NCBI GenBank assembly: GCA_003280965.1
Contig: QCDI01000011.1
Location: forward strand, 1-64,000
Length of the DNA: 64,000 nt
Reading direction: 5' to 3'
Source: Prochlorococcus sp. AG-355-B18
Lineage (GTDB): Bacteria > Cyanobacteriota > Cyanobacteriia > PCC-6307 > Cyanobiaceae
A model generated the notes under the pieces. The model did no database searches and had not been told where the DNA came from. It saw only the letters and a list, made by a program, of their open reading frames with translations. Of the stretch, positions 12,690 through 63,712 are shown in pieces. A program made the position numbers and the translations under genes. Positions within the stretch are counted from its first letter, which is position 1, and every line of letters begins with the position of its first letter.

Positions 12690-13418
12690 TCAATTTTTAT
12701 TCATAGTTTTATTTTTTGAGTCTAAGATACGTTCAATCTTTTCTATTTCAAAATTTACCTCAGAATTACTCAATATGGAACTCAACTCTTCAGTGGGATC
12801 TTTTGGATCTACATCTTTTAAAATGAATATTATTTTGTAAGATTGAAGCTCAATTTTTCTTTTTTTTGAAAGATTCTTAATTTTTTTATTTTTTTTATCA
12901 TCAAATTTTTTGTTTTCTTTTTCTAAATTTATATCTTTTTTATTTTCTGGAACATTTTTTGGCTTCACTACTTTTTTAATTTTTTTATTTTTTTTATTTT
13001 TTTTATCATCAAATTTTTTGTTTTCTTTTTCTAAATTTATATCTTTTTTATTTTCTGGAACATTTTTTGGCTTCACTACTTTTTTAATTTTTTTATTTTT
13101 TTTATTTTTTTTATCATCAAATTTTTTGTTTTCTTTTTCTAAATTTATATCTTTTTTATTTTCTGGAACATTTTTTGGCTTCACTACTTTTTTAATTTTT
13201 TTATTTTTTTTATTTTTTTTATCATCAAATTTTTTGTTTTCTTTTTCTAAATTTATATCTTTTTTATTTAATAAGTTATTTTGTAAATCTTCATTTTTGC
13301 TTGTTTTTTCTAAATCATTAAAACTACTTTCAAGAAAATTTCCAATCCTCCCTCCAGAGCATGATTGCAAGAAAATTAAAAAAATTAATAAAAAAAATTC
13401 TTTTTTTTTTAAAATCAT
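12690..13418 (-). CDS. Hypothetical lipoprotein with Lys-rich 36-aa repeats
   Basis: Hydrophobic signal ending LQSC; repeated KKDINLEKENKKFDDKKNKKNKKIKKVVKPKNVPEN; non-repetitive C-terminal YKIIFILKDVDPKDP domain. Confidence 0.75.
   Translation of the reverse strand: MILKKKEFFLLIFLIFLQSCSGGRIGNFLESSFNDLEKTSKNEDLQNNLLNKKDINLEKENKKFDDKKNKKNKKIKKVVKPKNVPENKKDINLEKENKKFDDKKNKKNKKIKKVVKPKNVPENKKDINLEKENKKFDDKKNKKNKKIKKVVKPKNVPENKKDINLEKENKKFDDKKNKKIKNLSKKRKIELQSYKIIFILKDVDPKDPTEELSSILSNSEVNFEIEKIERILDSKNKTMNKN
12881..13269. repeat. 108-bp tandem repeat, ~3.6 copies
   Basis: TTCTAAATTTATATC recurs at 12921, 13029, 13137 and 13245; the copies appear identical. Confidence 0.95.
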
Positions 13419-60675: not shown

Positions 60676-60757
60676 GGGTCGGTGCCCGAGTGGTTAAAGG
60701 GGGCGGACTGTAAATCCGCTGGCTCTGCCTACGTTGGTTCAAATCCAACCCGGCCCA
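60676..60757 (+). tRNA. tRNA-Tyr(GTA)
   Basis: Acceptor GGGTCGG/CCGGCCC, anticodon arm GCGGA-CTGTAAA-TCCGC, long variable arm, T-loop TTCAAAT. Confidence 0.97.
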
Positions 60758-60766
60758 CTTTAAATT

Positions 60767-60838
<72 letters not shown>

Positions 60839-60946
60839 TACCCAAAAGCCGAACTTCATTTAGGGAGTGGTTAATCTCTTTAATCCTTTGATATGAATTT
60901 ACTTCTGATCTTTCAGAAGCAAAATAGTGCGATAACTAGTGCATTA

Positions 60947-60991
60947 TTGACAATTAATCTAAAATAAGGGGCAATTAGCTCCCTTTTTATG
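60947..60991 (+). repeat. Promoter/leader repeat element, copy 1
   Basis: TTGACAATTAATCTAAAATAAGGGGCAATTAGCTCCCTTTTTATG; the final ATG is the start at 60989. Confidence 0.93.
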
Positions 60992-61978
60992 AAGAGATTT
61001 TTAATTCCTTTATTAGCTGCTCTTGCAATTCCAACTACCGTTAATGCAAATGTAGATCCCAAAATCACCGAGATTTGCATGAAAGCAACTGATTTCAAAG
61101 GTTGTGTGGAAAGTATGTCTGGTCAGCAGAATAATAATGTATCAATTAAATCAGGATATGACGAAGCTCTAATAGCTTTTGAAAAGGGAGATTCTTTAAA
61201 AGCAATTAAATCAATAAATTCTTATATTAAAAAGAATCCTAATTCTAAAGAAGGATATTTATTAAGAGCATTTATTAATACGTATGATTTATCAGAGTTT
61301 GATAAAGCCTTAGAAGATGTAGATAAAGCGATTGAGATAGATCAAAGTTATGCAATTGCTTACGCTTTAAAAGCAGATATTTTTTATTTTGATATTGGAG
61401 GCAGTGCATCTCAAACTAAAAAGATGCTAAATAAGGCTTTTGAAATTTCTCCTGATAATCCCTTCGTAAACTTTGTTAAAGGAGATTTCTATTACGATGA
61501 TTCTTTTGTTCTTCTTGATAAAGATAAAAAAGAATTGGCTATTAAATCCGCTGAAAAAGCATTGATCCATTTTGAAAAAGTAGTTGAAAATTATAAAAAT
61601 AATAAGGATTTGATAATTAAAAGAATTTATCCTCTTGGGATTACTTACGCTGCCACAGCCAGATTGGGTGAAGCAAAATTTGAACTTTATTTCATGTATA
61701 AGGACATTAAGGATAGAAAAACTGCCAAAACATATTTAGAAGAAGCCCTATCTCACTACACAAATGCTATTTCAATGGCTCCGTCACAAGAAAAGGCTGA
61801 AGAAATTGAGTTAGATAGAGATTTTGATTTAATAACTCCGGCAGATTTATATACTGAAAGAGGTAATATTTATAGTTGGATGAATAATAAGGTAAGGAAG
61901 GCCTGCAGTGATTGGAAGGTTGCCAAAGGATATGGAGATAAAGATGCACAGAAGAACTACAGAGAATTTAGATGTTGA
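60989..61978 (+). CDS. Secreted TPR-like repeat protein
   Basis: Signal peptide MKRFLIPLLAALAIPTTVNA; helical repeats such as YLLRA...KALEDVDKAIEID and LYTERG...ACSDW. Confidence 0.8.
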   Translation: MKRFLIPLLAALAIPTTVNANVDPKITEICMKATDFKGCVESMSGQQNNNVSIKSGYDEALIAFEKGDSLKAIKSINSYIKKNPNSKEGYLLRAFINTYDLSEFDKALEDVDKAIEIDQSYAIAYALKADIFYFDIGGSASQTKKMLNKAFEISPDNPFVNFVKGDFYYDDSFVLLDKDKKELAIKSAEKALIHFEKVVENYKNNKDLIIKRIYPLGITYAATARLGEAKFELYFMYKDIKDRKTAKTYLEEALSHYTNAISMAPSQEKAEEIELDRDFDLITPADLYTERGNIYSWMNNKVRKACSDWKVAKGYGDKDAQKNYREFRC

Positions 61979-61996
61979 ATTAATTAACAAAAATAA

Positions 61997-62023
61997 TTGA
62001 AATGCTTACTACCTGGACCGCTT
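61997..62023 (+). repeat. Degenerate MKRLLL signal-peptide stub
   Basis: TTGAAATGCTTACTACCTGGACCGCTT is 23/27 identical to 62495-62521. Confidence 0.8.
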
Positions 62024-62033
62024 TAGTTAGTAA

Positions 62034-62078
62034 TTGACAGTCGATCTACAATAAGGGTAATTAGCTCCTTTTTTTATG
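62034..62078 (+). repeat. Promoter/leader repeat element, copy 2
   Basis: TTGACAGTCGATCTACAATAAGGGTAATTAGCTCCTTTTTTTATG; the final ATG is the start at 62076. Confidence 0.93.
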
Positions 62079-62498
62079 GGAAATTATACAAATACCATTA
62101 ATTGGTTATTTGGTAGAGCTAGAGATTTTTTTGGTCCTGAACCAGGCACCTTAGTACCATTAAATATTTTGGCGGCTTTTTTTGCTCATGAACACTCCGA
62201 TGCTTCAATGAGGATATTGCATGGATATACTTCAATTGGATTAATAATTGGGATTTTTAGTACATTCAGTATTCTTGTGAATATTCGTTCAAAATTAAAG
62301 AGGATACGCGTTTTTGTTCCTCTTCTCATAATAAATATATGGGCATTTTATACAAATACATGGGTAGCCATAAATGGTATGGGGATCCCGTATGGGAAAC
62401 AATTCCATATATTTTTAGCAGTTTTAATAATATTTAATTATTCTATTTTTCGTAAATATACCAATTTAAAAGAAACTAGTGACCTAATAATTAAATGA
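62076..62498 (+). CDS. Hypothetical membrane protein (~3 TM)
   Basis: 140-aa ORF with three hydrophobic segments, starting at the repeat element's ATG. Confidence 0.7.
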   Translation: MGNYTNTINWLFGRARDFFGPEPGTLVPLNILAAFFAHEHSDASMRILHGYTSIGLIIGIFSTFSILVNIRSKLKRIRVFVPLLIINIWAFYTNTWVAINGMGIPYGKQFHIFLAVLIIFNYSIFRKYTNLKETSDLIIK

Positions 62499-62527
62499 AA
62501 CGCTTACTACTTGCACCGCTTGATTAA
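62495..62527 (+). pseudogene. MKRLLLAPLD* signal-peptide stub
   Basis: ATG overlaps the upstream TGA; its TAA overlaps the next ATG at 62527. Confidence 0.65.
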
Positions 62528-62784
62528 TGGCTAAGCCTCACTGGTTGATTAATTCTAAAAGAACAGAAGTGAAAAGATTTATAAAAAATGATAAGAGCAT
62601 TGAGGGAGTCTTCGAGTATATGTTTGTAGATACCGGAAAAATAGTTGGCGTATTTGGTATAGAACCACCCGTAATGACAACAACTGTCTCTCTAGATATA
62701 GATTTAGCGAGAGAAATTTATGAAAGATTACTTTCTCAGGGTTGAAGGAAAACTGAAGAAGTTTGCAAAAAAAAAGAGGGGTAA
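62527..62784 (+). pseudogene. DUF1651-like protein with a premature TGA near the C-terminus
   Basis: WLINSKRTEVKRF...AREIYERLLSQG*RKTEEV; the TGA at 62743 sits where GWRK is expected. Confidence 0.6.
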
Positions 62785-62803
62785 AGCTGCACCAAAGCCC
62801 CTC
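62767..62803 (-). terminator. Rho-independent terminator on the minus strand
   Basis: Minus strand reads GAGGGGC-N14-ACCCCTC-T9. Confidence 0.7.
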
Positions 62804-62846
62804 AAATAAAAGCACTGCGTAAACATAGTATTAACCTTTTGACTGA

Positions 62847-62892
62847 TTGACAGTTGATCTAAAATAAGGGGCAATTAGCTCCTTTTTTTATG
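62847..62892 (+). repeat. Promoter/leader repeat element, copy 3
   Basis: TTGACAGTTGATCTAAAATAAGGGGCAATTAGCTCCTTTTTTTATG; the final ATG is the start at 62890. Confidence 0.93.
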
Positions 62893-63333
62893 AGAAAAAA
62901 AATTCTTTATATATTCACAGTCTTAACTTTTTTATTAAACATATCAAACCAACCAACCTTTGCAGGACCATTTTCAGATGAGATGGCCAAATGTTTGGTG
63001 TCATCGACTAATGATAGAGATATAACTAAATTGGTAAAATAGATTTTTAGAGTTTATGGAGATCATCCAGAAGTTTCCTACATGGTTGATTTATCAGATA
63101 GAGAAAAAAAAGTTATTGATAAAGATGTTGCAGATTTAGTTACACGATTATTATCTGAAGATTGTTTAGATGAATCTAAAAAGGCTCAAAAATATGAGGG
63201 GGACATTGTTTTTTTTAATGCTTTTAAAATTTTAGGTCAAACAGCTGCACAAGGTTTTAATGGAAATCCTGAAGTAACAAGATCCATGAATAAATTTTCT
63301 GAGTTTCTTAATAATGAAAAATTAGATTTTTAA
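62890..63333 (+). pseudogene. Secreted hypothetical protein with one in-frame TAG
   Basis: MRKKILYIFTVLTFLLNISNQPTFAGPFSDEMAKCLVSST...KLVK*IFRVYGDHPEVSY continues in frame into the track ORF 63082-63333; TAG at 63040. Confidence 0.8.
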
Positions 63334-63366
63334 AGTAAACAAATTGTGAGGACAAATAGTCTACAA

Positions 63367-63507
63367 ATGAAACGATTATTACCTATTCTTGGAATATTTT
63401 TAATGACAACTGGTCTAGTCTCAAAGGAAGTGAGAGGAGATGAAGTATTGCAAAATATGTATGAAAATCTTACAACCGATTTATATGAAAAGACTTCAGG
63501 GAACTAA
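63367..63507 (+). pseudogene. Truncated signal-peptide ORF (46 aa, MKRLLPILGIFL...)
   Basis: Manual translation; its 3' end overlaps the integrase fragment in another frame. Confidence 0.55.
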
Positions 63508-63712
63508 TATTACTTGCTATTCATTCAGGCATTATTATGCCCTTCGTTGTCATTTAAAACTGATTGATTCTGGTAGTGCATCTTTAAGTATGGGACATTC
63601 AATAGAAGCTCATCATAGAAATTATCCATATTCAAAAGAATCCACAACAACTAATGCTTTTAAACTTGCAAGAGAGAGAGGATTGTTGCTTGAAAAAAAT
63701 TTCAATTTTTAA
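63485..63712 (+). pseudogene. Tyrosine recombinase/integrase C-terminal remnant
   Basis: YSFRHYYA...SMGHS...HHRNY matches the box II pattern with the catalytic Tyr; the N-terminal domains are absent. Confidence 0.8.

Follow-up and report, generated by a model that had tools for sequence, protein, structure and literature searches.

Coleman et al. reportedly described in 2006 a repeat of ~48 nt, Prochlorococcus repeat element 1 (PRE1), present at about 9-13 copies per genome and almost always in islands, and suggested that it plays a role in rearrangement. In the T4-type phages RB49 and phi1, repeated promoter/stem-loop modules, the PeSL cassettes, recombine and shuffle genes as they do so (PMC2839356, accessible part). 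Integrative elements of Prochlorococcus target a set of island tRNAs that includes tRNA-Thr(ggt) (bioRxiv 10.1101/2020.12.28.424599, available text). The DNA studied here, called the window, is a stretch of 64,000 nucleotides from Prochlorococcus sp. AG-355-B18 (genome G000, contig C11, positions 1-64000; the genome is 1.58 Mb, ~31% GC and 99% complete), the end of which is the start of a tRNA-Thr island in a Prochlorococcus-type genome. It carries two repeated joints, E, a leader joint of ~43 nt, and S, the DNA encoding an MKRLLL signal-peptide start, and the E/S system is a real, genus-wide cassette-shuffling arrangement. An earlier note on this stretch had proposed an integron-like array of three units, each made of a leader element, a cargo gene and a signal-peptide stub.

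Exchange of gene-sized modules at E and S

E and S are joints at which, across the genus, gene-sized modules are added, removed or swapped. The genomes compared are related rather than independent, so the counts given throughout overstate independence and describe a pattern, not rates. A search with the window array recovered every cargo as a separate block bounded by the repeats and with differing neighbours: E and S flank cargo 1 in three genomes (G119, G156 and G224; 88-92%), cargo 2 in six other genomes (88-99.5%), with new neighbours on both sides of the copy at 99.5% identity, and cargo 3 in two (L202/L203). The first leader of the window, E1, with its variant core and the spacer ahead of it, heads two other genes (L021 and L029), so that this mutated core carries three different cargos in all; a spacer variant likewise carries three cargos. 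S follows 34 of 92 E-led open-reading frames (ORFs; 25 of 41 families) compared with 65 of 2272 other ORFs (39 of 890 families), a background that includes core genes. When copies of the same ORF 3′ end were compared, the downstream DNA differed in 170 of 319 pairs with E or S in both and in 582 of 5612 pairs with neither; per family, the downstream difference was 0.70 (n = 32) with E or S and 0.22 (n = 232) without. Of the upstream flanks that recur among 354 E and 191 S copies, 40 of 51 at E and 27 of 31 at S were found with more than one downstream flank.

The switches from one neighbour to another map inside the 16-22-bp cores of E and S. Bases -8 to -1 track the upstream gene (0.85-0.99) and bases 17-35 track the cargo (0.69-0.99). 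At 50 E sites with both partners known, a few rows of which are reverse-strand artefacts of the palindrome, position 16 is informative at 38 and agrees with the cargo at 30 of these, with the upstream partner at 7 and with neither at 1. Most crossovers at E fall at positions 1-15, with about a fifth beyond the core, and those at S are scattered (8 sites only). Like recombines with like (E×E and S×S), and modules take the forms E-ORF-E, S-ORF-S and, by way of S-E composites, E-ORF-S; adjacent joints are co-oriented in 327 of 363 cases. Recombination of E with S was also considered and rejected: the two align at 9 of 16 bases by eye, yet no E/S hybrid site was found among the loci examined.

Ten events pairing an empty with a filled allele were identified, 7 of them E×E and 3 S×S (from 22 rows, with one self-match dropped and repeats merged), and whether such a pair records gain or loss is unreadable from the pair. 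All 10 empty alleles retain a single E or a single S, and one of them is an S at C11:64684, just beyond the window. Several expectations of the earlier note are borne out by these results, namely that S is tied to the 3′ ends of element-led ORFs, that cargo is swapped by recombination at conserved flanks, as seen in modules that recur with other neighbours and switch inside the cores, and that empty and filled alleles exist. The empty form that it had predicted, E joined directly to ATGAAACG, pairs with nothing. Its further proposal, that new ORFs insert at the leader/ATGAAACG junction and push the old gene start downstream, does not agree with the finding that just 3 of 415 distinct E copies run directly into an S-like start and that none of these joins is the empty partner of a filled unit.

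The E leader

The E leader is laid out as a 16-bp core, a -10-like TAnnnT box, a hairpin with a GC stem, a T-run and a start codon. The box is present in 120 of 132 independent leaders, which were chosen regardless of those positions, and a hairpin that is terminator-like in form in 64 of 132, the downstream and the shuffled controls giving 0-1 and the reverse strand 10. The commonest spacing places the start codon 43-45 nt from the first base of the core (57 of 132 leaders). At up to 2 mismatches, G000 contains 25 E and 23 S matches, the means for shuffled motifs being 1.2 and 0.36, and both kinds cluster in island-like regions. When the core was searched together with its left arm, one of 23 matches was the tRNA-Asn gene and one lay inside an ORF of at least 80 aa.

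The exact core is found in 38/38 genomes of genus g1, 5/6 of genus g33 and 1/106 others, at 0-13 copies per genome, and a stricter E pattern in 22/23 genus genomes and 1/227 others. Leader-bearing loci belong to Prochlorococcus sp. or uncultured Synechococcaceae (80 of at least 127 loci, among the matches listed). The lone outsider (L382, G398:C1:314186) is a complete leader of low-GC type that lies in another genus, in a region of 55% GC and behind the apparent tail of a DUF3303 gene, and suggests transfer between genera. Viral contigs gave one E match, at a contig end behind an integrase tail, in one scan and three in another, two of the latter three in 55%-GC contigs and seemingly unrelated. 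A search of annotated phages produced only matches of 42-59 nt at an E-value of 6e-3, which were judged to be chance, and an Rfam search of the window returned tRNAs only at gathering level. The E motif was sought in transcription-start supplements and was not found in those of PMC5607370 (12 of 22 files), PMC5069720 and PMC2518516.

One and the same E-like 15-mer, at two mismatches, occurs once each in G027:C2:36723, G202:C1:451121, G180:C1:661120 and G018:C1:332460 (4 of 5 genomes) and is not among the G000 matches. Islands of genus g33 (L371 and L372) contain clusters of near-identical ORFs of 60-85 aa starting MSEEELNQE or MNNTELTLD.

The S joint

S encodes MKRLLL with a CGC arginine codon, which is used for 2% of arginines genome-wide. 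The 191 copies include 124 stubs of up to 30 codons and 59 that open long ORFs, and with their first 24 residues left out of the comparison these long ORFs fall into 33 unrelated families. In 85 of 113 independent flanks the end of an upstream ORF falls between -8 and +5 nt from S, compared with 254 of 1368 ordinary genome starts, and in S-E composites the two joints lie 36-38 nt apart in 47 of 50. S is without symmetry, and its match to tRNAs is no better than that of shuffles. At one mismatch it is present in 11/11 genus genomes and in five other small-genome genera, and in 0/122 others. In viral contigs of 41-52% GC, S starts genes without E.

A gene family of 165-172 aa, with one copy shortened, was observed in viral contigs of 41-43% GC (L350, L352, L354, L355, L358, L359, L361, L362 and L365); it opens with the exact S 17-mer, has no E and might point to phages as a source of S. 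In other small-genome genera (L367, L373, L374, L377 and L379) S and differing signal-peptide genes come after a similar integrase tail, again without E.

Arrays behind integrases

The arrays sit downstream of tRNA-targeting integrases of tycheposon or 'cryptic' type, loaded behind the stop codon, usually with E first and S last. Among 76 distinct integrases, a set whose bias is taken up below, 37 have sites behind them and 39 have none, giving the co-occurrence with a recombinase family that the earlier note had asked about. In 32 of the 37 a site lies within -21 to +23 nt of the integrase stop; E opens the array behind 34 of the 37, and S closes 17 of the 23 arrays that are complete. G000 has four PF00589 matches and two further related frames, and two of its integrases stop right at the leading E of an array. 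In relatives, one integrase family has E at the stop codon in 23 of 30 loci, many of them near-identical. Near-identical integrases are found with and without load, as in L103 and L102 (98%) or in the series L131 (none), L130 (S), L129 (S-E) and L128 (E), and intact elements that agree in integrase and in native right-hand genes carry differing E...S loads.

The integrases' own attachment (att) fragments are of tRNA-Pro, -Ser, -Thr or -Met, and for the tRNA-Pro integrases the fragment starts with the anticodon arm, at tRNA position 29 in 39 distinct flanks. A tRNA-specific, inward-facing integrase next to a full or partial island tRNA is present in G000 C1 and C2 and in relatives, and the window retains only a remnant. 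A TTGACAG upstream of tRNA-Ser integrases was considered as a half-site and dropped, since the att of these integrases is tRNA-Ser.

Three further loci of G000 were recorded. The element at C1:97189-106766 (L062) is a complete-looking tRNA-Pro element with an E-E-S-S array behind its integrase and with AAA_25 and VapE-like genes, candidate replication or excision genes of which the window region has none. A core tyrosine recombinase at C2:132175-133344 (L069) is present in 61/61 family genomes, beside a gene that we take, by resemblance, to be a ferrochelatase. An element at tRNA-Asn (C7:42888-56000) carries a resolvase and, at its far end, a P4-like integrase; it also has a short duplication of 3′ tRNA sequence, and arm-like 8-mers recur at either end of it. 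The genome also contains recA.

The array in the window

The window array is a decayed piece of such E/S arrays (Table 1), and its motifs are where the earlier note had placed them: E cores at 60946, 62033 and 62846 and S starts at 61997, 62495 and 63367, three matches each, compared with 0.44 and 0.09 expected by chance, a number reached in 0/100 shuffles for either motif. The cassette region starts ~100 nt past tRNA-Tyr and tRNA-Thr(ggt). Across 60 relatives the DNA 3′ of tRNA-Thr is highly variable, and the three cargos of the window are present there in 0/60. Integrase c84 adjoins tRNA-Thr(ggt) in 5 relatives, and in L029 residues 1-89 of this integrase are kept upstream of the spacer that precedes E1.

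Table 1 Features of the array region at the end of the window
Feature	Coordinates	Strand	Remarks
tRNA-Tyr(gta)	60676..60758	+	final core gene ahead of the island
tRNA-Thr(ggt)	60766..60839	+	island seed; target of one tycheposon-type integrase family
Spacer from decayed tRNA-Thr element	60861..60945	+	with E1, heads two other cargos (L021, L029)
E1 leader	60946..60988	+	variant 16-bp core (3 mismatches), TAAAAT box, hairpin, T-run
Cargo 1	60989..61978	+	329 aa, MKRFLIPLL signal-like start, TPR repeats
S1 stub and spacer	61997..62032	+	S-E composite joint with E2; S-to-E distance 36 nt
E2 leader	62033..62075	+	consensus core ATTGACAGTCGATCTA
Cargo 2	62076..62498	+	140 aa; without Pfam family
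S2 stub MKRLLLAPLD*	62495..62520	+	overlaps cargo 2 stop
DUF1651 gene	62527..62745	+	shortened by TGA where homologues carry TGG
GC hairpin region	62776..62803	+	closely similar sequence after the last array S at G000 C1:101601; partly in L153
E3 leader	62846..62889	+	terminator-like hairpin at 62866-62884
Cargo 3	62890..63333	+	signal-peptide protein, in-frame TAG at 63040-63042
S3	63367..63507	+	MKRLLP start of a 46-codon frame
Tyrosine integrase C-terminal remnant, tRNA-Pro type	63464..63679	+	residues 343-413

The proposed array of three units holds as far as three E and three S are present; the units do not abut, as the DUF1651 gene, a native gene of integrase elements, and a hairpin stand between S2 and E3. 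S lies 19 nt past cargo 1, overlaps the stop of cargo 2 and lies 34 nt past the end of the cargo 3 frame. S3, which had been read as a further stub, opens a frame that runs into the integrase remnant, itself 67% identical to the intact integrase at G000 C1:99270. All three cargos had been called secreted or membrane proteins, and this is consistent with the signal-like start and TPR repeats of cargo 1 and with one stretch of cargo 2 that passes the hydrophobicity cut-off, a predicted feature; cargo 3 is broken by its TAG, at a position that is Trp in the 149-150 aa homologues of L203/L204. Nor is the system limited to cell-envelope proteins, since many E-led cargos look cytoplasmic (DUF3764, DUF3303 and DUF3804), or to a sample of three units, given the matches elsewhere in G000. 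In an atlas search, cargo 2 reached a top score of 0.88, a lead only, and the intact homologue of cargo 3 resembles hypothetical proteins with few recorded members, mostly in Pseudomonadota (score 0.98).

In contigs from RNA runs, cargos 1 and 2 and the DUF1651 gene are covered and cargo 3 hardly, which indicates neither expression nor silence. Read depth is higher over E, S and the E1 spacer than over the cargos, depth being no copy number. No long-sided joint that skips or circularises a cargo was found among the matches listed for contigs of 4 runs, and the S-to-E joints listed from the same contigs have short sides only and are indistinguishable from chromosomal composites.

Two tandem repeats were observed elsewhere in the window. 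One, at 1-225 at the contig start, has a 45-nt unit in ~4 copies with 93-94% identity and is probably coding on the minus strand; the other, at 12756-13377, is an A/T-rich 108-nt repeat with a 54-nt subunit and is probably a lysine-rich coding repeat.

Mechanism and alternatives

The account that we favour, and hold to be somewhat probable, is that short-homology recombination takes place at an E and an S that are selected for their functions, with the arrays carried by integrases. The hairpin and T-run of E would end the upstream transcript and its -10 box would start a new one inside the hairpin, with a leader of ~20 nt, while S would act as a translationally coupled signal-peptide start that sends the fused ORFs to the envelope. 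Selection on these functions would keep the copies alike, and ordinary recombination over short homology, either RecA-dependent or by slippage and annealing, would then cross over at E and S as it does at phage PeSLs. The integrases would serve as vehicles, carrying complete arrays from island to island and from cell to cell by way of their own tRNA att sites and leaving E and S uncut. This account is favoured because crossovers are scattered, mutated cores swap and S is plain and asymmetric. No reading, favoured or rival, explains the first capture of an unrelated ORF between E and S, and our guess is that illegitimate joins, kept by selection, might have produced the first fit.

Several observations weigh against the short-homology account. 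The 16-bp core suffices for exchange even between leaders with unrelated hairpins, most crossovers falling inside it, and 16 bp is short for RecA. Independent upstream genes keep the left arm of E alike, a conservation that homology by itself does not call for. Clean replacement of a cargo between the same two outer flanks was found in 0 cases, and one cargo stands behind 13 different upstream flanks, a high turnover. As for a transcription start in E, a standard -35/-10 promoter scan did not pick up the leader, its TTGACA lying off the -35 spacing, and leaders of genus g33 keep the hairpin in 6/9 cases and the box in 2/9. The integrase set was found with two queries that are themselves trailed by E, which biases the counts of 76, 37 and 34 given above.

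The main alternative, possible and on balance unlikely, takes E for the core site at which a tycheposon-clade tyrosine recombinase acts, this being either the sedentary core integrase at G000 C2:132175 or element integrases of relaxed specificity. E would derive from or mimic the anticodon arm of tRNA-Asn, circles of E and ORF would excise and integrate at E, and S would be shuffled passively. The core of E, AT(C/T)GA-TTGACAG-TCGAT, has inverted arms around a 7-bp spacer (5-7-5), as such a site would. The right arm is invariant and the left arm degenerate yet enriched: over 144 independent upstream flanks, base -1 is G in 47% and base -2 is T in 72%, and at least 3 of 4 places of ATCG are matched in 29 flanks compared with a control mean of 5.3 (maximum 12). 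The left arm is inherited with the upstream gene, yet enriched for the complement of the right arm. The E consensus agrees with the reverse complement of the anticodon arm of G000 tRNA-Asn(gtt) at 14 of 15 bases (14/17), the anticodon differing, and the best of 300 shuffles and 300 palindromic words reached 13/17; against this stands the fact that the match was spotted after the fact. In genus g33 the tRNA-Asn arm differs, and its alternative base recurs in E's left arm; the matching TCGG starts 7 of 10 E sites, several of which share one upstream gene and are not independent. E is antisense, like the att fragments of neighbouring integrases, of which those for tRNA-Pro begin at the anticodon arm. 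Crossover in the anticodon loop is a known integrase class (PMC4383910, accessible part), and the core integrase, found in 61/61 family genomes, groups with tycheposon integrases (bioRxiv 2020.12.28.424599, available text).

Other results argue against a recombinase site. Among 483 E copies, none is followed directly by an integrase that could use it as its att. No loop-type duplicate of the 3′ part of tRNA-Asn was found, this part being single-copy in 107/107 matching genomes of 121, and the G000 element at tRNA-Asn is P4-like. The Asn-type spacer occurs at 4 non-tRNA sites, fewer than the 10 of another variant, and an ideal arm of Asn/Asp type has 0 matches in viral contigs. The core integrase is family-wide, whereas the range of E (g1, g33 and 1/106 others) is far narrower. 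The crossovers beyond the core, about a fifth, and the swapping of mutated cores do not fit a cut site, S shows neither the symmetry nor the tRNA match, and the operator of a dimeric regulator would show a symmetry similar to that of E. A fuller form of the proposal, which we consider unlikely, is a Prochlorococcus analogue of the integron built from tycheposon parts, in which E, an Asn-like att core with a promoter/terminator head, would be recombined by the core or an element integrase and, together with the non-interchangeable S, would fill a cargo bay gene by gene and fuse ORFs to a signal peptide.

It is very unlikely that the repeats are passive, E being an operator/promoter shared within an island regulon and S a signal peptide copied many times, with new neighbours arising only from element accretion and subsequent deletion between direct repeats. 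Deletion between co-oriented repeats does account for every empty allele, because direction is unreadable from a pair; many E-led genes come from the few small families named above, E has a second symmetry (7-1-7) beside the -10 box, and S opens the viral genes of 41-52% GC without E. This reading is contradicted by near-identical cargos behind many unrelated upstream genes and in different islands, by cargo 2 at 99.5% with both neighbours new, and by intact elements that share integrase and right-hand genes and differ in their E...S loads. No regulator was identified either. CGRE1, the operator of the GntR regulator PMM1637, is a 21-22-nt motif flanked by GTTA/GTTG upstream of yfr2, and E as a CGRE1/GntR operator was rejected since length and sequence differ (PMC6191309, accessible part).

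A true integron or cluster of attC sites lacking an integrase (CALIN), in which E or the S-E joint would be the attC of an IntI integrase, is largely refuted and has next to no chance of being right: sites close behind stops, co-oriented arrays and an adjoining tyrosine recombinase do recall one, but the integron-integrase model TIGR02249 has 0 matches in G000, none of four integrases tested is above the cut-off for integron-integrase models, the integrase points into the array and not away from it, each E cassette brings its own start signals and, as the earlier note had held, there are no attC hairpins, no attC-like bottom-strand fold having been found (z above -1 for the S-E joint, E1, E2 and S2; 1.44/0.34 for the S-E joint; only a short 7-bp hairpin in E3).

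Comparison with known systems

The E/S joints bear on the gain and loss of single genes in Prochlorococcus islands. With two defined joints and their mapped crossovers, turnover becomes testable at the level of the gene, and the cargo of islands and tycheposons can be divided into its natural modules in studies of pangenomes and metagenomes. If E were a recombinase site after all, this would name a substrate for the tyrosine integrase of 61/61 family genomes and give a second route to an integron-like system.

With integrons, as generally known, the E/S arrays share co-oriented single-gene cassettes, a site close behind each stop, an adjoining tyrosine recombinase and empty and filled alleles. 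They differ in that no IntI or attC fold was found, in having two non-interchangeable types of site and cassette-borne start signals, and in an integrase that is co-oriented with the array. E is presumably PRE1; like that repeat as reportedly described, E is 43-48 nt long and island-bound, with 0-13 exact cores per genome. We know of no partner repeat, mapped crossovers, empty and filled alleles, integrase link or tRNA likeness reported for PRE1. A literature search, which left most subscription journals and the bioRxiv supplements uncovered, found no paper on E, S or their pairing.

The arrays fit as cargo of tycheposon-type or 'cryptic' elements. The available text on these elements describes the same inward tyrosine integrases for island tRNAs (Pro, Ser, Thr and Met), optional replication genes and cargo (bioRxiv 10.1101/2020.12.28.424599). 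Cargo turnover is attributed there to element gain, imprecise excision and recombination, and exchange gene by gene at internal repeats is not described in that text, which has the word 'integron' 0 times and 'repeat' twice.

By analogy, the closest described process is the PeSL shuffling of phages, and the statement in the earlier note that no mechanism of the kind had been described was too strong, since PeSL cassettes shuffle genes at repeated modules (PMC2839356, accessible part, here and below). In both systems an intergenic module that reaches from the upstream stop to the next ATG combines promoter-like and stem-loop parts and lies in hypervariable regions, and in both, crossover between copies adds, removes and exchanges genes without known function, with no dedicated recombinase identified. 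PeSLs are ~100 bp long and contain -35, -10 and Shine-Dalgarno sequences, whereas E has a 16-bp core and no -35 at the standard spacing; PeSLs belong to phages with their own recombination system, for which mini-circles have been demonstrated, whereas E and S belong to a cellular chromosome. The E/S system further differs from PeSL shuffling in its second, coding joint, S, and in its arrays behind integrases.

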